42,384 nt of DNA from Pseudomonas phage LPPA56. The stretch lies in the sequence record OR188718.1; one strand, given 5' to 3'. Shown piece after piece: positions 12,965 through 31,065 of this stretch (position 1 is the stretch's first letter; each line of letters begins with the position of its first letter). The position numbers and the translations under genes are program-made. The notes under the pieces were generated by a model. It was not told the DNA's origin. It saw nothing but the letters and a program-made list of their open reading frames with translations, and did not search any database.

Positions 12965-15900
12965 ATGACGATCACCGTCGATGATGTAAAGCTGCTGAAA
13001 TCCCAGCGCCTCACCGATGAGGACGACGGCGGCGGCCGTGCCACCGGGCAGGCCGTGGTGGATCGCGAGATCAACAACCTGTTTCCCGATATCTCGCGCC
13101 TGGACCGGACCATCGGCCGGATCAACCTGCGCAAGGCCTTCGCCGGCATCAGCTCGAATAGCGCCGAGCCGTACCTGGGCGCTCATGCCATCGTCACGCG
13201 GGCGCCGGCCGATCCGCGTGTCTCGGTGCTGCTGTTCAACACCGGCAGCCAGACCGATGAGCGCCGCGACGCGCGCAACGCCATCGAGTCCTTCGTGGTG
13301 CCGGCCGTGTCTGCCTCGTTCGAACTGCTGGGCAACCAGTTGCAGGGCCAGCGCGCCATCGCTTGCGTGCAGCGCGAAGAACAGCGGCTGCCCGAGATTG
13401 GCGAGGTCTATCAGTTGGTGTTCGAGTCGCGCTCGCAGTATGTCCGCATCACCGACGTCGAGGCGCGGCTGGAACAGTTTGCCCACGACTACGGCAACGG
13501 CAACTTCGTGAACTTCACCCGGCGCCGGCTGGACCTGTCGATCAGCGCGCCGCTGGGCGCGACCTTCCCCGGCGGCCAGGTGACGCCAGGCGGCACCACC
13601 AGCCCGAAAAGCCAGGTGCTCAGCACCCAGGTCGCCGATGCCGCGCGGTACTACGGCATCAGCCCCCTGGCCGAGGCTGTCAGCCGCGGCGCGCTGAGCC
13701 TGCGGGTCAAGTCGGTCTATTCCCAGCTGGTGCCCAGCACCACCCGAGAGAACGCGCTGGTCGACCAACTGGCCGGCTACCAGCGGCGCCTGTTCGCTGC
13801 GGCCGGGCCGGCGCGGACGGTCAACCTGAATGTCGCGAACATAGGCAGCGGCAGGTCGCGGACGTTCCTCGGCACCGGCTGCGCGCCGGGTTCGCTGTCG
13901 CTGAGCGCCGGCGGCGGCGTGTTCGCCGACGACCGCAAGGGAGGCCTGCGCTACATCAGCGGTTCGAACTGGATTGCCAGCGGTACCGTCGACTACGAGA
14001 GCGGCGCAATCGAGATGGCGGCCTCCGGCAGCGGCTGGAGCGGGACAGCGAGCGCCACCTACCAGCCGGCCGCGGCGGCGACCGGCGAAGCGGTGACCGG
14101 GGAGATCCCTATCGAACTGGGCAACCGCGGCTTCGTCTACACCCTGTCGCTGTCCGAAGCGCCGCCCCAGCCGGGCACCCTGGTGGTCTCGTTCCTCGCC
14201 CTGGGCAAATGGCAGGAGATCCGCGACCAGGGCAACGGCGAATTGGCCGGGGAAGGCACCGGCACGGTGGACTTCGCGACCGGCTCGGTATCCATCACCC
14301 TGAGCGCGCTGCCGGACGTGGGGAGTTCGCTGATCTACGCCTACGTCGGGCAGAACGATGCGGCGCTGACCCAGCGCACCGGCACCAGCGTGCAGGCGCG
14401 CGCGCGGATCAACCGGACGTTGCCGCACCAGGGGCTGTTGCCCGGCTCCTACAAGGCGACGTTCAAGGTCGGCGGGGTAGAGCGCACCGTGCTCGATAGC
14501 GGCAACGGCTCGCTCAGCGGTACCGGTGGCAGCGGCCAGATCAACTATGCCGACGGCAAGGTCAGCATGGAATTGAGCGCCACCCCGGATGCCGGGAGTG
14601 GGATCGTGCATACCTACCAGCAGGGCAGCGTGACAGACAGCCCGCTGGCGGTGACCTCCGACAGCACCGGCATGTGCATCGGCACTCTCCCCGGGGCGCC
14701 GCTCAAGGCGGGCAGCGTGCGCCTATCGTGGATCACCAAGCGTCGCCAGGCGGCACCGACCCTCGGTGCTGACATGGGCACCGGGGCGCTGCCGATCTTC
14801 GAATCGGAGATCACCGTGGACAACTCGGTGACCGACGACGCCGCCGGCGGCTGGGCCGGGCGCGCCGGGACGATCAACTACGAGACCGGCGAATTCAGCC
14901 TGAAGGTGGCCGGCAACTACGTGTTCAAGGAGTACACCTACTACACCGACACGGTCGACAACTTCGGTATGAAGAAGCTGCGCCTGGTGGCCACCGATAC
15001 CACGTTGCTGGAGGGGTTCGGCGGCACGCTGAGCGTGCGCGCGCAGAGCCGCGGCGTCGAGTACGGCGAGCAGACCGATTCGCAGACCGTCGCTCCGGTG
15101 ACCCTGGACCTGTTGCCTGGTGTGGCCGAGCCGATCCTGCCGGGCTCGCTGGTGTTCACCTGGGCCGGCGAGGTCTACGTCGACCGCTCCGGTGTGCTCT
15201 ACAAGAACATCAACAGCAGCACCAACGCCGGCATCGCCGTCGGCTCGGTGGACTACGCCGGCCGTACCGCGACGCTGAATACCTATGGCTCGGGGGCGGC
15301 GCCGACGGTCACGCTGCTGGCCTGTCTGACCACCAACGCCGGCTTCAGCGTCACCAGCATGACCTTCCGCACGCCGGGGGCGCCGCTGCGTTCTGCGAGC
15401 CTGCAGGTGACGGCGGTTCGCCTGGATACCGCGCAGATCGTGACCACCACGGCGGACGCGAACGGTAAGCTCAATGGCGCGGTGATCAAGGGTAGCGTCG
15501 ATATCGTGACCGGCATCGTCCGGCTGCGCTTCACCAGCAATCTGGAGGACACCACTGGGGCCAGCGATATCCCGGTGATTCCGCTGCTGCTGCGCTACAA
15601 CGCGGTCGTCTTCACCTCGCTGCCGCTGGACGCCACCCTGCTGGGCCTGGACCCGGTGCGACTGCCGGCGGACGGGCGGGTGCCAGTGTTCCGCGAGGGT
15701 GACGTGATGGTGGTTGCCCATACCGCCGAGACCACGGTGCCGAGTCCTCAAGCTGGCGGCGTGCTGCAGCTCGGCCGCGACCAGCAGGCCGAGATCAAGG
15801 TGGTGGACGCCAACGCGGTGGAACTGGCCTCGGCGGGCTACAGCGTCGACCTGGAACGCGGCCGGGTGACATGGGCCAACCCGCTGGTCCTGCAGGATGC

Positions 15901-16516
15901 CGAGGGCAACCCGCTGACCCTGCCGCTAGTGGTGCGTGACCGGGTTGAGCACATGACCCTCTGCACCGAGGTCCAAGTGAACGGCGAGCTGGGAATCTCC
16001 TCGCCGCTGCCCTGGGATCTGCCGGCGGGCGAAACGCTGGCGTCCAGTGCGCTGAGCTGGGGCGACCTGCAGGCGCGGCTGCACCACTGGTTCACCCAGC
16101 GGACCTGGGATATCGGCTCGCCGAACTGGACCGACGAGCCCAAGGGCGATGGGACCACCGCCAACTACAACAGCCTCGCCTATCCACCGCTGATCGCCAA
16201 CCGCGGTGCGATCGATGCGAAGTGGGCGCTGGTGTTCAACTCCTCGACCAGTTTCAGCGTGGTGGAGGAGAAGCTGGGGGTCATCGCCAACGGCACTACC
16301 ACCACCGACACGGCGCCGATCAACCCGGAGACGAACACGCCGTACTTCACCATCCGCAAGGAAGGCTGGGGCAGTGGCTGGGCGGCCGGCAACGCGGTGC
16401 GCTTCAACACCGACTCGTGTCTGGGGCCGATGTGGATCGTGCGGACGGTACTCAGCGGCAAGGGCACCGTCGAGGACGATGAATTCCACCTGCAGATCAG
16501 AGGAGACGCGGACTGA
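12965..16516 (+). CDS. large distal tail / host-specificity protein
   Basis: 1183 aa, Gly/Thr/Ser-rich beta-type composition, in the distal tail module. Confidence 0.55.
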   Translation: MTITVDDVKLLKSQRLTDEDDGGGRATGQAVVDREINNLFPDISRLDRTIGRINLRKAFAGISSNSAEPYLGAHAIVTRAPADPRVSVLLFNTGSQTDERRDARNAIESFVVPAVSASFELLGNQLQGQRAIACVQREEQRLPEIGEVYQLVFESRSQYVRITDVEARLEQFAHDYGNGNFVNFTRRRLDLSISAPLGATFPGGQVTPGGTTSPKSQVLSTQVADAARYYGISPLAEAVSRGALSLRVKSVYSQLVPSTTRENALVDQLAGYQRRLFAAAGPARTVNLNVANIGSGRSRTFLGTGCAPGSLSLSAGGGVFADDRKGGLRYISGSNWIASGTVDYESGAIEMAASGSGWSGTASATYQPAAAATGEAVTGEIPIELGNRGFVYTLSLSEAPPQPGTLVVSFLALGKWQEIRDQGNGELAGEGTGTVDFATGSVSITLSALPDVGSSLIYAYVGQNDAALTQRTGTSVQARARINRTLPHQGLLPGSYKATFKVGGVERTVLDSGNGSLSGTGGSGQINYADGKVSMELSATPDAGSGIVHTYQQGSVTDSPLAVTSDSTGMCIGTLPGAPLKAGSVRLSWITKRRQAAPTLGADMGTGALPIFESEITVDNSVTDDAAGGWAGRAGTINYETGEFSLKVAGNYVFKEYTYYTDTVDNFGMKKLRLVATDTTLLEGFGGTLSVRAQSRGVEYGEQTDSQTVAPVTLDLLPGVAEPILPGSLVFTWAGEVYVDRSGVLYKNINSSTNAGIAVGSVDYAGRTATLNTYGSGAAPTVTLLACLTTNAGFSVTSMTFRTPGAPLRSASLQVTAVRLDTAQIVTTTADANGKLNGAVIKGSVDIVTGIVRLRFTSNLEDTTGASDIPVIPLLLRYNAVVFTSLPLDATLLGLDPVRLPADGRVPVFREGDVMVVAHTAETTVPSPQAGGVLQLGRDQQAEIKVVDANAVELASAGYSVDLERGRVTWANPLVLQDAEGNPLTLPLVVRDRVEHMTLCTEVQVNGELGISSPLPWDLPAGETLASSALSWGDLQARLHHWFTQRTWDIGSPNWTDEPKGDGTTANYNSLAYPPLIANRGAIDAKWALVFNSSTSFSVVEEKLGVIANGTTTTDTAPINPETNTPYFTIRKEGWGSGWAAGNAVRFNTDSCLGPMWIVRTVLSGKGTVEDDEFHLQIRGDAD

Positions 16517-17523
16517 TGACCGCTCGACAGTACAGCTATCGGGACGCCGGCGCACCGCCGGCGCTCTTCCCGTCGGCGGTGACGCCGTTCCAGAAGCTCA
16601 AGAGCTACCTGCGCGCGGCGCTGGTCGATGGCTACGGCAACAAGCCACCGGCAGGGTGGACCGTGGTAAGCGAGTTCGACACTGCCATCACCCTGGCTCC
16701 GGCGTCCAACTGTGCACAGATCACGTTCTGCCAGCACTTGCCAAGTAGTAGCGGTAGCAGCTACCGGGACTTCGTCGGGATCTTTGTACATGAGGGCATG
16801 CTGGATATCAGCACTCCGCTTCCAAAGGGGGTCAACACGCGATCACGTACGTGGTCGGCGGATACCAACCCCACCAGCAATGATGCCCATATCCTCTATC
16901 TGGGCTACATGTACTGGAACTACGCCACCTATTGGCAGATCTGCGCGGATGCCGAGACGTTTGTCTTTTGCATGCTGGCGGATAGGGGCTATGAGAATAC
17001 GAGCGAGGACTACAGCCTCGGCCTCTATGTCGGGCAGTACGAGAGCTTTAGTGGCGCCTCTGGCGTCCAGGGATTCATCGCCGTCGGTGGCGCCCAGGGG
17101 TATCAGAGTTCAGCCAGCCGAAGTACCAACCGGTCCTTTGGGAGTGGGTTCAGTTCACTGCGTGACCAGCGCTCGGGGGAGATCATCCAGGGTGGCGGCG
17201 CCGCCCTGGGGGCGCTGATGGACCAGATGCAGTACCAGAGCATGTACTACGACAGGCCAGAGGGAGAGAATCCGCCCTATTGGCGTATGCAGCAGCCCTA
17301 TGTGGCGAACGGCGCGAACTACGTCGGCCTCCTGAAGGGTGTGTGTTTCGACCCGATCCTGGGCCACTACCGGCATGGGCACCTGCTGGATCGGCTCGGC
17401 CTGCCCCTGGCCGCAACCTCGGTGGCGGAGGCGGTGCAGATGGATGGCAAGACCTATTACGTGGATATGGACCGTTGGGGGCTCTGGTTCCTGTCTGTCG
17501 ATCCGGCGTGGTGGCCAGCATGA
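16516..17523 (+). CDS. tail fibre / receptor-binding-like protein (contains a lower-GC patch)
   Basis: 335 aa; Tyr/Trp/Gly-rich. Nt ~16790-17200 are visibly less GC-rich than the flanks. Confidence 0.4.
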   Translation: MTARQYSYRDAGAPPALFPSAVTPFQKLKSYLRAALVDGYGNKPPAGWTVVSEFDTAITLAPASNCAQITFCQHLPSSSGSSYRDFVGIFVHEGMLDISTPLPKGVNTRSRTWSADTNPTSNDAHILYLGYMYWNYATYWQICADAETFVFCMLADRGYENTSEDYSLGLYVGQYESFSGASGVQGFIAVGGAQGYQSSASRSTNRSFGSGFSSLRDQRSGEIIQGGGAALGALMDQMQYQSMYYDRPEGENPPYWRMQQPYVANGANYVGLLKGVCFDPILGHYRHGHLLDRLGLPLAATSVAEAVQMDGKTYYVDMDRWGLWFLSVDPAWWPA

Positions 17524-25151: not shown

Positions 25152-26662
25152 TTCGCCCCCTTGAACATGCGGCGCTCGGTCTGGCCGACGAGCCAGGCCT
25201 TCGGCACCTCATTGCCGGGCGAGGCGGTGAGCAGTTCGGCAGCACGCCACAGCGCGTCACTGGTGCGAAGATCGGAATAGGCCATGATCGCTTCCCAGTG
25301 GCTTTCCGCCTCTTCGTCATCGAACTCGGACAGCAACTGAACGATGGCAAAGGTCTGGGCGTGCTCCGGGGCACCGGAGTCAAACATGCCGGCAGCGTTG
25401 AGCGAGTATTTCCTTCCTTCGGCCGCTACCAGAGCGGCGGCATTTAACGGCACGCTGTGCTGAGCCTGGTTGTCGATCAACGCGATGATGTGGTCAGGCA
25501 TGGTCAGCGCCTCGTAACGCACCATCAGGTCCGAGGCCTCATCTCCGCTGAGTAGCGGGTTCTTGAGTGCGACAGCAATTCGGCGCAGTTCCGAGTGGTC
25601 GCCGGACTGAGTCTGGGTTACTGGGGCGTCGGTGCGGGCCCAACCAGCTGAGCACATGGCAGCTTCGTCCACTGCTTGGATGTCATTCGTAGAGCTTAGG
25701 AAAACCACAATTGCCTCGGGGTTGCACTGCGCCCGAATAGCGTCATGGAACCGCTTGCATTCGTGAACCTGCTCTTCGTTGAAGTCGCCGACCAGGGCGA
25801 TTACCGAAGCATCTACGGGAACATCCTTGATGCGCGCGGCGACCAGGGCTTCGAGTGCTTTGACCCTGGCCAGGGCAGCGTCGCGCAGTTTCTGGAGCGC
25901 CCTGGATTCAGCTTCCCAGTGGTCGGCAGCGCCTCGCAGTTCCTTAATCTCCATTTCCATTCCAGCGCACTGATGGCGCGCAGCATCGCCTTTTGCGGCC
26001 GCGTCGTTTGCCATAGCTAGTTCGGCTTCCAACTCCGCGCACCTGGCCAGGGCGGCGTCGCGCTCTTGCTCCAGTTGGTCGATACCAACAGACAGGTAGC
26101 CGTCCATCATGCCCATCATGCGGTGTTCGAGGGCGTCGGCGCGCTCGTTGGCGGCGTCTCGCTCTTTTTCGCAGCGCCCCCAGCCGTTCGTTGCGCTACC
26201 GAGCTTGAAGATCAGCTCGGTGTTGCGCTCTCGCTGAGATTGAAGCTCCGCCCGCAGTGCTTCGACTTCGGCCTGGGCGACTTTCAGTTGATCCTCCAAG
26301 CGCTTGGCATAGCCGCGAATGCCTTGCACGGTCCAGCCACCATCGATGGCGTCTTGCGGCAGCCCTTCGCAGATACGCTCGAACTGGCGCAGGCGCACGG
26401 CGATTTCGTTCTTGTGGTCTCGCTCCTGTTCGGCCAGGTATTGCCAGTGCTCGGCAGCCGGCCATGGGGACGGAACAACCACTGCGTCGACCGTAATTCC
26501 CTCTGGCATCGGCAGGGCATTCAGGTCGGCCGCGTGCTTGTCGGCGTCTTCGCGGCTGAATGCTGCGTACAGTTCGTCCGGCCCTTGGGCATGTACAGCC
26601 CACAGTTCCGGCCGCTCCGCCTCGGCGATGGGCAGGCTGTCTTGTTGGGTCTTCTGGCTCAT
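25148..26662 (-). CDS. hypothetical coiled-coil protein, translationally coupled to the DGR reverse transcriptase
   Basis: 504 aa. Residues ~80-290 are E/A/L/R-rich heptad-like. Start ATG 26662 overlaps the RT stop (ATGA). Confidence 0.5.
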   Translation of the reverse strand: MSQKTQQDSLPIAEAERPELWAVHAQGPDELYAAFSREDADKHAADLNALPMPEGITVDAVVVPSPWPAAEHWQYLAEQERDHKNEIAVRLRQFERICEGLPQDAIDGGWTVQGIRGYAKRLEDQLKVAQAEVEALRAELQSQRERNTELIFKLGSATNGWGRCEKERDAANERADALEHRMMGMMDGYLSVGIDQLEQERDAALARCAELEAELAMANDAAAKGDAARHQCAGMEMEIKELRGAADHWEAESRALQKLRDAALARVKALEALVAARIKDVPVDASVIALVGDFNEEQVHECKRFHDAIRAQCNPEAIVVFLSSTNDIQAVDEAAMCSAGWARTDAPVTQTQSGDHSELRRIAVALKNPLLSGDEASDLMVRYEALTMPDHIIALIDNQAQHSVPLNAAALVAAEGRKYSLNAAGMFDSGAPEHAQTFAIVQLLSEFDDEEAESHWEAIMAYSDLRTSDALWRAAELLTASPGNEVPKAWLVGQTERRMFKGAK

Positions 26663-27729
26663 GCTGCCTCCTTGAACGTCTTGCGCAGGTTTGCGGAGAC
26701 AGAGCGGCCGCGCTTCTGCACGATCCTGGCCAGCCTCCGGCGGGCGTTGTGGCTGTGGCTGGCCTGGTCCAGCAGGCCGAAGTAGCTGTTGGCGGTTTCG
26801 CGCAGCTGTTCCCCCGGCGCGGCGCTTACCTGGCGCAGGGCAGTTTCCACGGTGCGCGGGCGTGTGACGCGGCGGTGCGGAAGGATCACCTGGCCAACGA
26901 AATCGATCCCGCGGGCGATGGGCTGGAGCACGGTCTTCGCAGGGTTGAGTCGGGCATGTAACGTGTCGGCCAGGAATGCCTCGATCTGGTTGTGCCAGGC
27001 ATTCAGCTGTTGGGGAGACTCGGCCAGCAGAACGAAGTCATCGACGTAACGGATGTAGTGCTTCACGCGCAGCTGGTGTTTCACGAACTGGTCCAGAGCG
27101 TCGAGGTGCACGTTGGCGAAGAACTGTGACGACAGGTTGCCGATAGGCAGGCCCAGGTACGCCGGCTGGGCGGTGAGCCGCTTGTGCTGCGGCACGCGAT
27201 TCAGCAAGCGGGTGGGGCTGCGGGTTTCGTAGTTGGTGCGTGGGTCGTGCCAGAGGATCTGTAGGGCAAGTGCCCGCCAGGTTGGCTCGGGGATGCGCGC
27301 GATCAGTTGCTGCTCGAGCACCCGCTTGTCGAGGGAGATGAAGAAATTGGACAGGTCGCACTTCAGGTAGAAGGCGCGGCGTTTCCAGTTGCGGGTGATG
27401 CTGCGCACCTTCTTCTCCAGGCGCTGGGCGCCATAGAGTGTGCCGCGGCCCTTGATGCAGGCACAGCTATCAACAATGAAGGAGCGCTCGATGCGCGGGC
27501 CGATGTGGTTGTACAGCAGGTGGTGGACGATTCTGTCTCTGAAGTCGGCGGCCCACACCTCGCGGTGCTTCGGGTGGGTCACGACAAAGCAGATGGAGGC
27601 GCCGGGTTGGTAGGCGCCGGTGTTCAGCTCATGGTGGAGTTGCATGATGTTGCGCTCCAGGTTGAACTCGAATGCAAGGGCCGACTTGCTGTTGCGCTTG
27701 CTGCGCCGGCAGTCGTAATAGGCCTGCAT
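26659..27729 (-). CDS. DGR reverse transcriptase
   Basis: RT motifs incl. IRYVDDFVLL (YxDD), NLSSQFFANVHLDALD, QPGASICF. N-terminus FSIEALMQAYYDCRRSKR aligns with DGR RT N-termini. Start ATG 27729 with GAGG RBS; the track ORF extends to 28077 across the TR and is probably not translated. Confidence 0.85.
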   Translation of the reverse strand: MQAYYDCRRSKRNSKSALAFEFNLERNIMQLHHELNTGAYQPGASICFVVTHPKHREVWAADFRDRIVHHLLYNHIGPRIERSFIVDSCACIKGRGTLYGAQRLEKKVRSITRNWKRRAFYLKCDLSNFFISLDKRVLEQQLIARIPEPTWRALALQILWHDPRTNYETRSPTRLLNRVPQHKRLTAQPAYLGLPIGNLSSQFFANVHLDALDQFVKHQLRVKHYIRYVDDFVLLAESPQQLNAWHNQIEAFLADTLHARLNPAKTVLQPIARGIDFVGQVILPHRRVTRPRTVETALRQVSAAPGEQLRETANSYFGLLDQASHSHNARRRLARIVQKRGRSVSANLRKTFKEAA

Positions 27730-27775
27730 GAGTGCCTCGATAGAAAATCCAGCATGGCCGCCGGTGTTGCCGTTC

Positions 27776-27877
27776 GATGCTGCGGACGGCGAAAGCGGGC
27801 CGTGCGTTGTCCTTGTCGTCGTTGTTCTGGTTGCCATCGTCGAAGTTCTGGATCCACGCGTTGTTCGGGCCGTTCTG
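27776..27877 (-). repeat. DGR template repeat (TR)
   Basis: 102-bp copy next to the RT. Every site that differs in the other two copies is an adenine on the minus strand. 8 AAC codons in the VR frame. Confidence 0.85.
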
Positions 27878-28051
27878 CGCCAGGTCGTGCTATCTACGTC
27901 GCGCTGCCGAAGGCCGAGGCCGATCAGTGGCGAGACTGCGCAGGGCCTGCCGGGACGATGCCCGGCGGTTCCCCTGGTGCGCATGACGGTGGCCTTGTGA
28001 GCCAGCGGCACGACCAGAATCAAAATCGCGCTGGTGTGAGGGCCGTGGCGC

Positions 28052-28414
28052 TCACACGGCTGGCGATGCGGCGGCATTTCGTTTCCACCCAGTGGCCTGC
28101 CGGCCTATGTCGTCGGTGATTTCAATGGCTCGGCCGTGCTGGGCTCCGCTGAGCAGCCCGAGGTCGACCGAGAGGCGCAGCATCAGTTCGACGACCTGGA
28201 TGCGTTCCAGGATCAGCTGAATGTGCGCTACCCGTTCCTGGCCGCCGGCCGTGTTGGCGCGGAAGATCAGGATCGACACGTCGATGCACTCGTTGAGCAC
28301 CTTTTCCCCGAGGGTGCGCTTGAAGTCGCGGCGCCACCCTTTGGAGAGGTCGGCTACAAGCCGGGCCAGTTCTCCGGCGCGTTTGTAGATCGGCAGGTGT
28401 TGGGCGATGGCCAT
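28052..28414 (-). CDS. avd: Avd-like accessory variability determinant (four-helix-bundle protein)
   Basis: 120 aa, basic, predicted helical, lying between target gene and TR as in the Bordetella phage mtd-avd-TR-brt cassette. Confidence 0.7.
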   Translation of the reverse strand: MAIAQHLPIYKRAGELARLVADLSKGWRRDFKRTLGEKVLNECIDVSILIFRANTAGGQERVAHIQLILERIQVVELMLRLSVDLGLLSGAQHGRAIEITDDIGRQATGWKRNAAASPAV

Positions 28415-28428
28415 GCTGGAAAACTCGC

Positions 28429-29091
28429 TTACTGCGCGCTGCGCGCGCAGTTGTTCAGAGCATTAAGTGGTGAAGGGATGAGGATTCTGCGGACGGCGAA
28501 AGCGGGCCGTGCGAGGCCCTTGCCGTCGATGCCCTGGTAGCCACCGCCGAAGTACTGGAACCACGCGCTGTTCGGGCCGTCCTGCGTGCTGGTGAGGCAC
28601 CAGCCCTTGCCCTGAAACTGTTCAGGGATGTGTGCCCAGCACAGGTACGCCTCTGCGCGGGACGGCAGGTAGAGATCCGTGTGTCCTTCAGCTTCCTGCT
28701 CGGTGGCCCATAGCGCAGCAGGGTGATCGATATCATGAGCGGTCAACGCACGGGTGTTGGCCAGGCCGTCGCGGATGTGATCTGCGCCGGTGACCCGGTA
28801 GCCGCGGCCGCCGTAGGTGATCGAGTCGATCTGTGCATGCTTCGGGGCGATAAGGTGGTAATCCGGTTCGCCATTTTCGCCACGCATCACGCCGACGTAA
28901 GTGCCGCCCTGGCCGTGCCAGTGCTGGCCGATAGCGGGCGGAGTGAGGTGGGCATCGAGAGTGATCAAATTGCCCTGGATGCTGCCGCTGGGTATCAGGC
29001 CTGTTTCCTGTTCCAAGGTGTGGCGGGCGAGCAGGGCGTTGGTGGTGATGAGCGTGGTGTCGCCGATTGCCAGAGTGATTTCGTTCTGCAT
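28429..29091 (-). CDS. DGR target protein 1 (DUF1566 / C-type-lectin-fold-like C-terminus carrying VR1)
   Basis: C-terminus WCLTSTQDGPNSAWFQYFGGGYQGIDGKGLARPAFAVRR = VR1. DUF1566-like motifs (GLANTRAL..., ...ARPAFAVRRI). No signal peptide. Confidence 0.8.
   Translation of the reverse strand: MQNEITLAIGDTTLITTNALLARHTLEQETGLIPSGSIQGNLITLDAHLTPPAIGQHWHGQGGTYVGVMRGENGEPDYHLIAPKHAQIDSITYGGRGYRVTGADHIRDGLANTRALTAHDIDHPAALWATEQEAEGHTDLYLPSRAEAYLCWAHIPEQFQGKGWCLTSTQDGPNSAWFQYFGGGYQGIDGKGLARPAFAVRRILIPSPLNALNNCARSAQ
28483..28584 (-). repeat. DGR variable repeat VR1
   Basis: Differs from the TR only at TR-adenine positions. Followed 32 nt 3' by an 8-bp GC hairpin (28432-28450). Confidence 0.85.
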
Positions 29092-29153
29092 GGTCTAGTC
29101 CTCAAAAATTTGAGCCGACCGCGCGCGGGGCGCGCGGCAGGAAAGCGAAGTGG

Positions 29154-29768
29154 TCAAGGGGTGACTTTGATTCTGCGGACGGCGAAAGCGGGCCGTGCGC
29201 TGACCTTGCCGCCGTCGGTCTGGTAGCCATCGCCGAAGAGCTGGATCCACGCGCCGTACGGGCCGTCCTGCGTACTGGTCCAATAACTGCGGGCCTCCAG
29301 CGCCTCCTCGCCGCCATCCTGGAAGATGGCAATGGGGCTCTGCCCGGGCGCCACGGCGGTGTACGGGTAGCCCGGCGGCAAGCTGCTGGGGTTGTCGCCA
29401 TCGCGGAAGCTGCACCAGTTCTCATCGGTGGTGGGCTTGCAGACCCGATAGATCATTTCGTTCTCGTCGCGGGCGCCGAGATACCAGTCGTTGTGGCCGC
29501 CAATCGAAAGGCCGAGCGCCCAGGCGGCCAGTTTCGAGCCGGCTTCGGCCATGGCCTTGGTGTTGGCCAGGCCGTCCACGAAGCTATCGGCGTCCGGGAT
29601 CAGCAGTCCGTACTCACCCCAGTGGATGGGAGCGTGGAAGCCCAGTGCTTTGGGTGCGCGGATGAGGGCGAAGCGCTCGCCCTGAATCTGGTACTGGCCC
29701 ATGTAGAAGCCGCCCTCGAACGGGGTGCCGAGGACGGTTGGCAGGGCGATGCTGGTCAGTGCGTTCAT
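29154..29768 (-). CDS. DGR target protein 2 (paralogue of target 1, VR2 at C-terminus)
   Basis: C-terminus YWTSTQDGPYGAWIQLFGDGYQTDGGKVSARPAFAVRRIKVTP. Shares the GLANT...W...YL core with target 1. Confidence 0.8.
   Translation of the reverse strand: MNALTSIALPTVLGTPFEGGFYMGQYQIQGERFALIRAPKALGFHAPIHWGEYGLLIPDADSFVDGLANTKAMAEAGSKLAAWALGLSIGGHNDWYLGARDENEMIYRVCKPTTDENWCSFRDGDNPSSLPPGYPYTAVAPGQSPIAIFQDGGEEALEARSYWTSTQDGPYGAWIQLFGDGYQTDGGKVSARPAFAVRRIKVTP
29169..29270 (-). repeat. DGR variable repeat VR2
   Basis: Differs from the TR only at TR-adenine positions. Followed 32 nt 3' by an 8-bp GC hairpin (29119-29137). Confidence 0.85.
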
Positions 29769-29779
29769 GTTTCATTTCC

Positions 29780-30322
29780 TCAGGCATTCGCGGTGCGATG
29801 GGTGATGGAGAGCAGATCCATCAGGCGGTAGTGGAAGCGGGTGCTGGCTTCTTCGATGGACCAGGGCTTGATGCGTGCCGCCAAGGGCTGGATACCGTTC
29901 AGGCAGGCCCACTCGGCGGGGTCGGCAGGCATCAGGTCGCGGCGCTCGGTGGCCAGCGCCACCAGGTCGGCGTGCTTGACTGACTCCGGCAGTTCCTTGT
30001 CCAGGTCGAACCGGGTGCAGATGGCTTCCCAGATGTGGTCCTCGACTTCGCGGTAGGCATGTATCTGCTTCTTGAGCGGCCGGACCATGTCACCGACGTA
30101 GGACTCGGTGGCGTCATGCAGCAGGGCGGACAGGCAGTCGGTGCTCGGCACCAGGTCTGCCACCAGGTAGCTGTGCTGGGCAACGCTGTAGTGCTGGGAC
30201 ACGTGGCCGTTGAACCGGCAGCAGTGGGCCAGGGCGTGGGAGATATCCCGCGGATCGATCATTTCCGGCTTGGGCTCGAATAGGTCGAAGCGCTTGCCGG
30301 TGTAGGTGAGAATCCAGGTCAT
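29780..30322 (-). CDS. HD-domain phosphohydrolase (YfdR-like 5'-deoxynucleotidase)
   Basis: HD motif context HSYLVADL...LLHDATESYVGD; 180 aa as in prophage YfdR. Confidence 0.7.
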   Translation of the reverse strand: MTWILTYTGKRFDLFEPKPEMIDPRDISHALAHCCRFNGHVSQHYSVAQHSYLVADLVPSTDCLSALLHDATESYVGDMVRPLKKQIHAYREVEDHIWEAICTRFDLDKELPESVKHADLVALATERRDLMPADPAEWACLNGIQPLAARIKPWSIEEASTRFHYRLMDLLSITHRTANA

Positions 30323-30330
30323 GGGTCACC

Positions 30331-31065
30331 TCACATGCACATCGGCGCGGTGTCGCCGGTGTAGTCGAGGTCCACCGCCTCCCAGGCGGAGAGTCTGTCT
30401 GTCGACTTGGCGTGCGGCAGGTTGGCCCCAGGTGCCTCGGACTCCTCGGCCTTGACCAAGGCGTAGGTGACGGCCTCGCGGATCGTCCTGGTGCCCCGGA
30501 AGGTATCGCCGACCTCGAAGCTCAAGGTGAAGGTGCCGAAGTCTGCGGAGCCGGTTGCATGCTGCTCGAGGAAGTCAAACAGCTTCGTATCAAGCGGCGG
30601 GGGCACTTCAGCGGCGAGTGCGGCCGGGATGCGCTGGAGCAACGCGCGGATTGCTTCCTGCGCGGCGTGGGCCTCTTCAGCCTTGTCGTTAGCGTGCAGG
30701 CGGGCGAACACGTCTCCGGCCAGGCGGAGCAGCTTCGCGGAGGTGGTGAGGGTGTCTCCGTCGCCTGGCTGAAACTGAGCGTACTGGGTACGGGCGTTGT
30801 TCCTGTCCAGGATCTGGTCGGCCTGCAGAAGCAGTGCTGCACGATCGTTGATGTGTTTCGCCTGCATCGCGCCCACGTCGGCCTGGAGAGCTCGAATGTG
30901 GACCTGCTGGTCTTCGATGCGGAGTTCGCAGGCTCTGGATGCATCGTCGTGGCCGGAGTTGTAGCCATTGGCATAGGCGGCGCGAGAGGCGCGGAGTGCG
31001 AAGAACAGAACCGCGGCGCAGGCGAGAGCCAGTCCGCCGATGATGAACTGATAGGTGATAGGCAT
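30331..31065 (-). CDS. hypothetical membrane-anchored protein
   Basis: N-terminal TM helix IIGGLALACAAVLFFAL. Shares the start context CACAGCACATG with the next two genes. Confidence 0.45.
   Translation of the reverse strand: MPITYQFIIGGLALACAAVLFFALRASRAAYANGYNSGHDDASRACELRIEDQQVHIRALQADVGAMQAKHINDRAALLLQADQILDRNNARTQYAQFQPGDGDTLTTSAKLLRLAGDVFARLHANDKAEEAHAAQEAIRALLQRIPAALAAEVPPPLDTKLFDFLEQHATGSADFGTFTLSFEVGDTFRGTRTIREAVTYALVKAEESEAPGANLPHAKSTDRLSAWEAVDLDYTGDTAPMCM

Follow-up and report, generated by a model that had tools for sequence, protein, structure and literature searches.

GC-rich hairpins and a phased 8-nt repeat tract 3' of the variable repeats of a diversity-generating retroelement in Pseudomonas phage LPPA56

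How the cDNA of a diversity-generating retroelement (DGR) finds and replaces a variable repeat (VR) is still unknown, as stated in a recent reconstitution of a DGR in E. coli (2026, PMC12875486). The genome of Pseudomonas phage LPPA56 (OR188718.1), of which the whole 42,384-nt stretch was analysed and is called the window here, raises this question at two VRs that share one template repeat (TR): what lies 3' of each VR that could mark it as a recipient, and is it missing at the TR? The original prediction was that both VRs are followed by DNA-level cis elements similar to those of BPP-1, namely a flanking motif and a GC hairpin, and that the TR has neither.

All features of the cassette lie on the minus strand. 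The reverse transcriptase (RT) gene, of 356 aa (26659..27729; RVT_1, E 1.2e-13; 160 homologous loci), is separated by only 46 nt from the TR (27776..27886), whose VR-aligned segment of 107 nt contains 32 adenines, and an Rfam RT-15 structured RNA is found 5' of the TR. The gene for the accessory variability determinant, avd, a four-helix bundle, was placed at 28052..28414; its Pfam bAvd match (E 2.9e-6) is below the curated cutoff, and phages Magia and Haboob have their annotated Avd-like genes at the same position. In cultured phages the homologous genes carry annotations as RT and as four-helix-bundle/Avd-like protein. Target gene 1 (28429..29091, 220 aa) contains VR1 (28483..28593, by alignment to the TR), and target gene 2 (29154..29768 in the ORF list, 204 aa), which is C-type-lectin-like with a weak Lcl_C match, contains at its 3' end VR2 (29166..29279), homologous to the TR in the same type of alignment. 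TR/VR differences concentrate at TR adenines, with 11-12 at A sites vs 2 elsewhere (L001 copy; VR2 equivalent, 11 vs 2). With its RT, avd, TR, two VRs in two targets and this adenine-specific relation, the cassette is a DGR; no third VR was found in the 42,384-nt window.

Both VRs also differ between related phages in the way expected of an active element. Loci L003 and L032 show 0 differences in 400 nt of flank, while at the 32 TR-A sites 17 differ in VR2 and 16 in VR1, and at the 75 non-A sites at most two differ. In general, between-phage VR differences number 11-19 at A sites and 0-2 elsewhere, which indicates that both VRs are recently and actively diversified.

A 26-nt GC-rich core ending ...GCCGTCCGCAG is common to the TR, VR1 (28487..28512) and VR2 (29173..29198, GCACGGCCCGCTTTCGCCGTCCGCAG), being the same in the three by alignment. 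As anticipated, the TR parts from both VRs soon after, 4 nt past CGCAG, and its unrelated 3' flank (27700..27775), which enters the RT start at 27729, carries neither the flank motif and 8-nt tract described below nor a comparable GC-rich hairpin. Each VR continues into a specific spacer of 35 nt, which reads AATCCTCA/TCCCTTCA/CCACTTAA/TGCTCTGA/ACA in VR1 (28452..28486) and AATC AAAGTCA/CCCCTTGA/CCACTTCG/CTTTCCTG, a degenerate array of 8-nt repeats, in VR2 (29138..29172). The predicted shared motif, TCAyCCCTTsACCACTT, is present in both spacers (28465-28481 and 29148-29164), 15/17 identical, and is unique in the window, where no other match was found even at up to three mismatches (0.16 expected).

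Beyond the spacer, VR1 is followed by a 9-bp hairpin, ACTGCGCGC-gca-GCGCGCAGT (28431..28451), located in the last codons of target gene 1, whose ORF runs on through spacer and hairpin to a TAA at 28429-28431. VR2 is followed by an 8-bp hairpin of G-C pairs only, CCGCGCGC-ccc-GCGCGCGG (29119..29137), which starts 17 nt past the TGA of target gene 2 (29154-29156), a stop codon that falls within the flank motif. The predicted 8-bp stems with 3-nt loops, one before and one after the stop of its ORF, were thus recovered, both perfect on the minus strand (28450-28432 and 29137-29119); the claim that both stems are all-GC holds for VR2 and fails for VR1, whose 8-bp form, CTGCGCGC-gca-GCGCGCAG, has one T-A pair within it and an extra A-T pair that extends it to 9 bp. 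The T-A pair becomes C-G in the VR2 stem, a compensatory change. From the last TR-shared base, ...CGCAGAATC, there are 32 nt to the 8-bp stem in VR1 and 31 nt in VR2, so that the stems start at nt 33 and nt 32, as had been stated, and from the GC-rich core to the stem there are 35-36 nt. The G-C-A triloop of VR1 has a C-G closing pair, and the CCC loop of VR2 is a non-consensus minority variant. The T-runs that lie 8-10 nt 3' of each hairpin are likewise conserved.

Perfect hairpins of at least 8 bp are common in the window (26 in 42 kb vs 7.8 ± 3.7 in shuffles) and GC-only hairpins number 5 vs 0.64 in shuffles; the exact pattern CBGCGCGC-NNN-GCGCGCVG occurs at the two VR sites only. Structure prediction, the check proposed originally, gave the hairpin as the minimum-energy single-stranded DNA fold of both VR flanks (z -2.0 and -2.3), while the TR flank was unremarkable (z -0.6).

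The loci of about 160 related cassettes provided a family sample of 218 distinct VR flanks and 108 TR flanks. In the near clade, defined by an RT at least 73% identical, a GC-rich hairpin was found in 40 of 41 distinct VR flanks, 30-39 nt past ...GTCCGCAG, and in 1 of 17 TR flanks, counts that come from related sequences and so represent non-independent events; in random windows the frequency was 7%. All near-clade hairpins have 3-nt loops, which are G[C/T]A in 34. RNAalifold independently recovers the same helix from the VR flanks, and in the hairpin alignment 96.6% of cells are paired, with compensatory changes in 5 of 9 pairs, a result matched by 0 of 500 shuffles; when the alignment was slid as a control, pairing dropped to 14-58%. 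Covariation in homologous cassettes, also put forward as a check, is therefore present. With about 30 distinct stem sequences over the family, the stem is kept as a structure whose sequence is free to vary.

Similarity of the two flanks could also be leftover paralogy, from tandem duplication of the targets or gene conversion that dragged the flank along, with no selected function. The targets are indeed paralogues, and an alignment of their flanks keeps the frame (L I P S P L vs V T P stop P L). However, outside the VR the two proteins share only 32% identity, with large gaps, against 15/17 in the motif; a compensatory change distinguishes the two stems; and the module is kept down to 56% RT identity, at loci with 2-6 VRs, while the surrounding sequence and the position of the stop codon change. 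We consider paralogy alone a highly improbable explanation. The stop codon of the target ranges from +13 to +55 from the anchor, and in most relatives it falls within the motif (CCCTT-TGA/TAA), at the place of TCA in the window's VR1. Because the stop codon moves in this way, the constraint on the VR flanks is not at the protein level. The VR-specificity, the covariation and the independence from coding computed here all agree with the predicted DNA-level elements marking the VRs.

A Rho-independent terminator also combines a G+C stem-loop with a nearby T-run at the end of a gene, and the hairpins could act on RNA, as attenuators, weak terminators or 3'-exonuclease barriers tuning expression of target 2, target 1 and avd-TR-RT, in which case their adjacency to the VRs would merely reflect that VRs lie at gene ends. 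Such a role was also raised in the survey by Wu et al. (2018, NAR, PMC5758913), and in the clade with RT identity of 66-73% the distal-VR hairpin is directly followed by T6, the canonical shape of an intrinsic terminator (GGGCGC-AGCA-GCGCC-TTTTTTGTTGCC; phage Cruim01 is another example). Both hairpins of the window are at gene 3' ends; however, their T-runs begin 8-10 nt past the stem and not within 0-2 nt, and a terminator scan of 26000-31000 called neither. Several features of the family also disagree with an RNA function: the sense-strand loop is constrained to G-Y-A, which stabilises DNA and not RNA triloops; remote third VRs of relatives bear the same module; the phased distance to the core of the initiation of mutagenic homing (IMH) site is conserved, which a terminator has no reason to keep; the VR1 hairpin is inside the ORF in the window's lineage; and hairpin-less relatives need no terminator between target 1 and avd. 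Taken together, these points make an RNA-level role unlikely.

The hairpin, read as a DNA element of the recipient site, is not found throughout the family. Its frequency is 98%, 65% and 24% by clade, the last value being that of VR flanks of cassettes with RT identity below 66%, and none was found at the VR flanks of phages Magia, QDWS and Haboob. Homologues without the hairpin had been named as evidence against its conservation; they are nearly absent from the near clade and occur among distant relatives. Because of these, the hairpin is best described, from what the comparison indicates, as a clade-level feature of enhancer type and not a universal one. Since all 13 near-identical pairs of hairpin-less cassettes, a possible test of recent activity without a hairpin, turned out to be the same genome in two collections, Magia and QDWS were compared instead, and their hairpin-less VRs differ at 12 of 28 A sites and at 0 of 67 non-A sites. 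The hairpin cannot be essential to the mechanism, because most distant relatives lack it and yet show A-biased VR divergence. The loop may also matter little in this family, because the CCC of VR2 fits neither GRNA nor G-Y-A and yet VR2 has been diversified.

The flank motif was conserved as predicted, although not as a stand-alone element: it corresponds to two units in a tract of tandem 8-nt repeats, and this tract fills the approximately 35 nt between core and hairpin with about four phased units of the type YYNYTTNA. Shuffled sequences give a lag-8 identity of 0.30 and TR flanks one of 0.245, whereas the 218 distinct VR flanks give 0.533; the 95th percentile of the shuffled values is exceeded by 86% of the VR flanks and by 0% of the 108 TR flanks. 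Counted from the anchor, the repeat cores keep a phase of +7/8, +15 and +23, and the tract has a G+C content of 0.30-0.47 vs a background of 0.60-0.64, with 63-67% pyrimidine on the sense strand. In the window's own flanks periodicity is borderline, the best lag-8 identity (0.5) being equal to the 95th percentile of shuffles, and the repeat is recognisable here mainly through the family. In Magia, QDWS and Haboob the tract is kept where the hairpin is lost, and in this RT family it is conserved more widely than the hairpin. AATCTG repeats spaced 7-8 nt are present in two unrelated lineages, Lagaffe and BalMu-1, and in some of the VHML lineage, in these three never with three or more copies after the TR; in the VHML lineage as a whole periodicity is weak (9% of flanks above threshold) and in the BPP-1 lineage an 8-nt periodicity is not supported (2%). 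To call the tract universal among DGRs would, on these frequencies, be wrong. A literature search, with partial coverage of subscription journals, found no earlier description of the tract.

What the tract does was approached through several candidates. It could be conserved as code for the C-terminal residues of the lectin-fold targets, and in VR1 of the window it is translated (RILIPSPLNALNN...). However, the ORF ends after 5-8 codons, within unit 1 or 2, in VR2 of the window and among the majority of relatives, the units past the stop are non-coding and still conserved and phased, and the DNA pattern persists while the terminal peptides vary (RIKVTP, RVLTTSTL, RFLID and RVVNP, each before the stop). 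Conservation at the protein level is largely refuted by the moving stop codon, and we find a coding explanation barely credible. Pairing of either spacer strand with the DGR RNA gave no signal in 41 flanks compared by RNAduplex with positions -330 to +200 relative to the RT start (RT-15 and TR included), the mean z against shuffles being +0.39 for sense and -0.35 for antisense. An IHF-like site (WATCAR-N4-TTR) showed no consistent match by eye. The initiation trinucleotide of E. coli DnaG resembles the CTG of the AATCTG repeats; a primase site was dropped as a candidate, as CTG is missing from the TTNA cores of the window's family and occurs in Firmicute phages even though Firmicute primases prefer YTA.

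Taking these results into consideration, we propose that each VR flank is probably a DGR recipient-marking module composed of the GC core, the VR-specific spacer and the GC hairpin. The module belongs to the known IMH-plus-hairpin target type of BPP-1 and is not a new kind of element. In this model, RT-Avd would turn the TR RNA into adenine-mutagenised cDNA, and the GC core would be the end of the cDNA/target homology. When the VR sense strand becomes transiently single-stranded, by replication or transcription, the inverted repeat, with its 8-9 bp G+C stem and 3-nt loop, would form a very stable mini-hairpin; in DNA, a G-N-A triloop with a C-G closing pair has exceptional stability (minihairpins of the Hirao/Yoshizawa type). 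The hairpin might then keep the site open or stall synthesis beside the GC core, and the cDNA could anneal and replace the VR. Because the TR has no spacer tract and no hairpin, information would flow from TR to VR only. By analogy with BPP-1, we infer that homing becomes more efficient with the hairpin and takes its direction from the VR-specific IMH sequence. The tract, AT-richer and pyrimidine-rich on the sense strand, would have the role that in BPP-1 falls to the 21-bp VR-specific half of the IMH, either by offering a platform to a multimeric recognition factor or by acting as an easily melted, strand-asymmetric spacer.

A further possibility, which we put forward tentatively, is that DGR target sites have a third component that has gone undescribed until now, namely 2-4 tandem 8-nt repeats arrayed in phase between core and hairpin. 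If true, RT-Avd or a host factor would use the array as its recognition platform on single-stranded target DNA, and the array would direct cDNA integration, the unsolved step of mutagenic retrohoming. On its own, the element of the window is another example of a known mechanism. The family, with two to six targets per TR, hairpins gained or lost between clades and the 8-nt tract kept throughout, constitutes a natural experiment, in which the loops break the GRNA rule and VR2 is active with a non-consensus loop. Tract, hairpin and loops are mutable features for tests of target recognition and for the design of minimal recipient tags for DGR-based directed evolution; in annotation, the tract and GC core would help to call true VRs, remote ones included, and to separate VR from TR.

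In BPP-1 the target site consists of the IMH (GC14 + 21 bp) followed by a hairpin/cruciform (Guo et al. 2011, PLoS Genet, PMC3240598; Doulatov 2004); efficient homing depends on a GC stem of 8-10 bp, a strand-specific loop and the IMH, which are also enough to retarget it, and the GRNA loop is functionally critical (PMC3240598). The E. coli reconstitution (PMC12875486) likewise found that the stem-loop improves efficiency, and proposed a model of single-stranded DNA on the lagging strand. As in BPP-1, in the window a GC-rich core ends the TR/VR homology and VR-specific sequence comes after it, an 8-bp G+C stem is present 3' of the VR and none at the TR, structure is conserved over sequence, and the loop is biased on the sense strand. 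The original prediction took the spacing to be longer than in BPP-1; this was not upheld, as the window stems, 31-32 nt past the VR end, are within the published distance of 4-34 bp (Guo et al. 2011, PMC3240598). Their length of 8-9 bp likewise fits the 7-10 bp of the inverted repeats of this target type. The BPP-1 VR is annotated to include the 21-bp IMH tail, and from core to stem there are about 35 nt in the window vs about 25 nt in BPP-1. The 21-bp segment likewise has two CYTGA units 8 nt apart (CACCTGAT/TCTTGAGT), vs three to four phased 8-nt units in the window's family; under the third-component reading, these two units would be what the array is reduced to inside the BPP-1 IMH.

Unlike BPP-1, the window has 3-nt loops (GCA in VR1, CCC in VR2; G-Y-A in the family), neither of the 4-nt GRNA form, which is present at most of the 42 hairpins found in 48 sampled VR flanks of the BPP-1 lineage. 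TR and VR diverge completely 4 nt past the core, with no recognisable IMH* tail, one TR serves two targets, and the RT-15 RNA lies 5' of a TR placed close to the RT gene. Wu et al. report a GC-rich inverted repeat downstream of the IMH in 34% of DGRs, a patchiness also seen across the clades of this family, and the consulted part of their survey describes no periodic tract separating this repeat from the IMH core. Hairpins with a triloop, placed within the target ORF, are already known from nanoarchaeal DGRs, those of Nanoarchaeota (DUSEL4) having G-R-A loops (Paul et al. 2015, Nat Commun, PMC4372165). The VR1 hairpin resembles these in a triloop that begins with G and ends with A and in its position within the target ORF; it differs in that the middle base in the window's family is a pyrimidine (GCA or GTA), VR2 has CCC and lies outside the ORF, the host is a bacterial phage and the hairpin is non-coding in most relatives. 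Set against the BPP-1 type, the differences that stand out are the 3-nt G-Y-A loops and the phased 8-nt array.

The window, with a G+C content of 64.5% and the appearance of a Pseudomonas-type phage, carries a complete diversity-generating retroelement (DGR) on the minus strand at 26.6-29.8 kb. On that strand lie, in this order, target gene 2 (29154-29768, 204 aa) with variable repeat VR2 (about 29166-29279), target gene 1 (28429-29091, 220 aa) with VR1 (28483-28593), an Avd-like gene (28052-28414), the template repeat (TR, 27776-27886) and the reverse transcriptase (RT) gene (26659-27729). TR, VR1 and VR2 are identical through GCACGGCCCGCTTTCGCCGTCCGCAG, and divergence starts 4 nt later. Compared with the closest public contig, the IMG/VR viral contig IMGVR_UViG_2671180317_000002, positions 26275-29729 are 98.5% identical over ~3.5 kb, which corresponds to the DGR cassette, with 52 mismatches mostly inside the VRs. 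The remainder of that 11-kb locus gave no megablast match to the window except one of 79 nt; since the match is practically restricted to the cassette, the DGR sits in a mosaic phage background. Both diversified target proteins are encoded in a minus-strand non-structural block, outside the plus-strand block of long ORFs (~0.8-20 kb), which is an unusual position for phage DGR targets; the target genes (28429-29768) adjoin a gene with a weak match to a YfbR-like 5'-deoxynucleotidase (29780-30322, minus strand).

Each VR is followed by a hairpin at the position originally predicted: CTGCGCGC-gca-GCGCGCAG at 28450-28432 for VR1 and CCGCGCGC-ccc-GCGCGCGG at 29137-29119 for VR2. The description of both stems as all-GC holds for VR2 (CCGCGCGC/GCGCGCGG) but not for VR1, which includes one T-A pair and is lengthened to 9 bp by an A-T pair; between the two stems there is one compensatory difference, T-A to C-G. 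The stems start 32 nt (VR1) and 31 nt (VR2) past ...CGCAGAATC. The 17-mer TCAyCCCTTsACCACTT, claimed to be shared by both flanks, was found at 28465-28481 and 29148-29164, with no further match in the window even at 3 mismatches (0.16 expected), and the hairpin sequence type does not occur in the window beyond the two VR sites. In DNA this rich in G+C a perfect 8-bp hairpin is no rarity (26 vs 7.8 expected; GC-only, 5 vs 0.64 expected); what is far from chance is that both VRs have one at equal offset and the TR has none. When structure prediction, proposed as a check, was performed on single-stranded DNA, the hairpin was the minimum-energy structure in both VR flanks (z -2.0 and -2.3), and the TR flank folded no better than shuffles (z -0.6). 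A further perfect hairpin, GC-only and with a loop of 3 nt (CGCCGGCG-cac-CGCCGGCG at 16545-16563, plus strand), has no relation to any VR and lies ~30 nt downstream of the junction between the long plus-strand ORFs 12965-16516 and 16516-17523.

An RT search returned 160 related loci (RT identity 56-100%) from viral contigs, Pseudomonas, Burkholderiales and other genomes. At each locus the TR was located upstream of the RT and the VRs were found through A-biased mismatches; all VRs and TRs were then anchored at ..GTCCGCAG, the end of the GC-rich IMH core common to both, giving 218 distinct VR flanks in which we looked for a GC-rich hairpin of at least 6 bp. Such a hairpin is present in 40 of 41 VR flanks at RT identity of at least 73%, with a 3-nt loop in all 40; in 65% at 66-73% identity, with a loop mostly of 4 nt; and in 24% below 66%, the loop being mostly of 3 nt (17/24), so that its retention in homologous cassettes is not universal. 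Among cultured relatives, phages Cruim01 and SC_8_H2H8_2017 have the hairpin, and none was found at the VR flanks of Magia, vB_Sb_QDWS and Haboob. The same test on controls was positive in 1/17 TR flanks and in 7% of random windows from the same loci. Hairpin starts in the closest clade fall 30-39 nt past the anchor (mode 35), and 34/40 loops there are GCA or GTA. With the 41 flanks aligned by MAFFT, RNAalifold independently predicted a 9-bp helix that is the same as the hairpin; 96.6% of cells are paired and compensatory changes occur at 5/9 pairs, a result matched by 0/500 shuffles, with slid controls at 14-58% paired. Such changes are the stem-keeping covariation that the original prediction had called for. 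C-G-closed G-N-A triloops are exceptionally stable DNA mini-hairpins, and the loop's bias to G-Y-A on the sense strand fits a hairpin formed in single-stranded DNA.

A third VR, or more than three, occurs in some relatives, 2.8-4.5 kb upstream of the cassette (L009:334, L010:1069, L015:1458, L081:662, L063:442, L102:782, L102:1702, L130:551 and L155:733, by locus and position); the repeat tract described below is found at each, and the hairpin too in several (L009, L010, L015, L081, L102:1702). At locus L077 the tandem targets number at least four, or five if a VR truncated by the start of the contig is counted.

Throughout the RT family, the 30-38 nt past the anchor form an array of phased 8-nt units, for example ACCCCTTGA, CCACTTCA, ACCCTTTAA, CCATTTGA in the window clade and GCCCATTTA, ATCATTCA, GTAATTTA in distant members. 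Identity at lag 8 is 0.533 in VR flanks, vs 0.30 for spacers after shuffling and 0.245 for TR flanks, and 86% of VR flanks exceed the shuffles' 95th percentile vs 0% of 108 TR flanks. Counted from the anchor, the positions of the TTNA-type cores have peaks at +7/8, +15 and +23; the tract has a G+C content of 0.30-0.47 vs 0.60-0.64 in its surroundings, is 63-67% pyrimidine on the sense strand, and is retained in clades where the hairpin is lost. For the two flanks of the window taken alone, the periodicity is borderline (lag-8 identity 0.5 at best); it becomes clear only through the family. The 17-mer motif is part of this tract, of which it makes up two units, and the 32-nt spacing corresponds to about four. 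No complementarity was found between the tract and the DGR RNA, and the literature searched, with incomplete coverage, had no prior description of a periodic tract. Leftover paralogy as the source of the flank likeness is highly improbable: the flanks are near-identical while the target proteins are only 32% identical outside the VR, which argues against simple paralogy. Action of the hairpins at the RNA level, as terminator or stabiliser, is unlikely, if less so; in one clade the distal hairpin does resemble a true terminator, but neither window hairpin scores as terminator-like, and a terminator would not account for the loop bias, for a phased spacing from the IMH core or for the absence from the TR.

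The position of the target stop codon separates DNA from protein constraint. Relative to the anchor, the stop moves from +13 to +55 among relatives; in most of them and in window VR2 it lies inside the motif (CCCTT-TGA/TAA-CC), while in VR1 of the window lineage TCA occupies that position and the ORF continues through the hairpin to TAA, placing the VR1 hairpin inside its gene as predicted. The C-terminal peptides vary (RIKVTP*, RVLTTSTL*, RFLID*, RVVNP*) and the DNA pattern and hairpin are kept. A protein-coding constraint on the flank, difficult to reconcile with the shifting stop and variable peptides, is the least credible explanation considered; as originally proposed, conservation is at the DNA/RNA rather than the protein level, and by these comparisons the constraint is on DNA.

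Between near-identical phages, VR differences are almost confined to TR-adenine positions. Loci L003 and L032 show 0 differences in 400 nt of flank, whereas 17/32 A-sites of VR2, 16/32 of VR1 and at most 2/75 other sites are different; VR2 copies whose CCC loop departs from the consensus are included. Both targets are live. Hairpin-less VRs diversify as well: between Magia and QDWS the proximal VRs differ at 12/28 A-sites and 0/67 others, with flanks 11% different. A close relative (L002:3548-3623) has one mismatch in the VR2 stem (GCGAGCGG), and despite it this VR2 differs from sister copies at 16-18 A-sites; the mismatch may be later than the last homing event. At L009 and L051, TR/VR differences are mainly non-adenine (e.g. 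2-5 A vs 10-12 other), which suggests a replaced or decayed TR and an inactive or hybrid cassette.

Rfam RF03018 (RT-15 RNA) strongly matches 27878-28068 on the minus strand (172 bits, gathering score 82, E 7e-43), starting in the final avd codons and reaching 9 nt into the TR, and RT-15 is annotated as misc_RNA in Pseudomonas phage Cruim01. These positions place the structured RNA 5' of the TR in the window's DGR family, whereas in BPP-1 a structured spacer lies 3' of it. Within the match, 27978-28018 (41 nt) shares 97.6% identity with Burkholderia phage Magia, although the Magia RT is only 63% identical, and so represents a highly conserved core of the RNA. The gap from TR to RT start is only 46 nt; 12 nt past the TR and just ahead of the RT start codon at 27729 there is a small terminator-like hairpin (27749-27764, minus strand), CCGGCG-GCCA-TGCTGG, two of whose 6 pairs are G-T; ATTTTCT comes after it.

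Four further DGR lineages were sampled for VR flanks with at least 3 copies of [AT][ACT]CTG. These were found in 10/13 flanks in FP_Lagaffe (77% exceeding the lag-8 threshold), 4/7 in BalMu-1 (copies 7-8 nt apart), 7/43 in VHML (9% exceeding) and 0/48 in BPP-1 (2% exceeding; hairpin in 42/48, loops mostly GRNA), and in no TR flank of any of the four. AATCTG-type arrays occur in BalMu-1, Lagaffe and part of VHML, directly ahead of the GRNA hairpin where present; loci L172-L176, L261-L283 and L310-L319 have 3-4 tandem repeats, 7-8 nt apart, between VR and hairpin. The 21-bp IMH tail of BPP-1 holds two CYTGA units 8 nt apart (CACCTGAT, TCTTGAGT). From these counts and units, the tract is neither universal nor confined to the window's RT family.

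The best-supported reading is that core, tract and hairpin are this element's version of the BPP-1 target module of IMH plus stem-loop. The predicted likeness to the VR-marking hairpin of BPP-1 extends to every defining feature tested except the 4-nt GRNA loop. In BPP-1, the optimal GC-rich stem is 8-10 bp and structure counts rather than sequence (Guo et al. 2011, PMC3240598); the sense-strand loop matters, homing being abolished by GAAA to CTTT (PMC3240598), and IMH plus hairpin are enough for retargeting to a reporter. A 2026 reconstitution in E. coli found that the stem-loop enhances homing but is not essential, proposed that it prolongs the single-stranded target on the lagging-strand template, and declared the DGR integration step still unknown; the G-Y-A triloop seen across the family and the phased tract of 8-nt units, specific to VRs, are testable handles on that step. 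The spacing, originally described as longer than in BPP-1, lies inside the published VR-to-hairpin range of 4-34 bp (Guo et al. 2011, PMC3240598), G-R-A triloop hairpins inside the target ORF have been described in nanoarchaeal DGRs (Paul et al. 2015, PMC4372165), and the patchy presence of the hairpin in the window's family agrees with the inverted repeat in 34% of DGRs given in a GenBank survey (Wu et al. 2018, PMC5758913). Because the BPP-1-type features are found here and spacing, triloop and patchiness all have precedents, this is a variant of a known target module and not a new system, and the finding as such is ordinary for a DGR.
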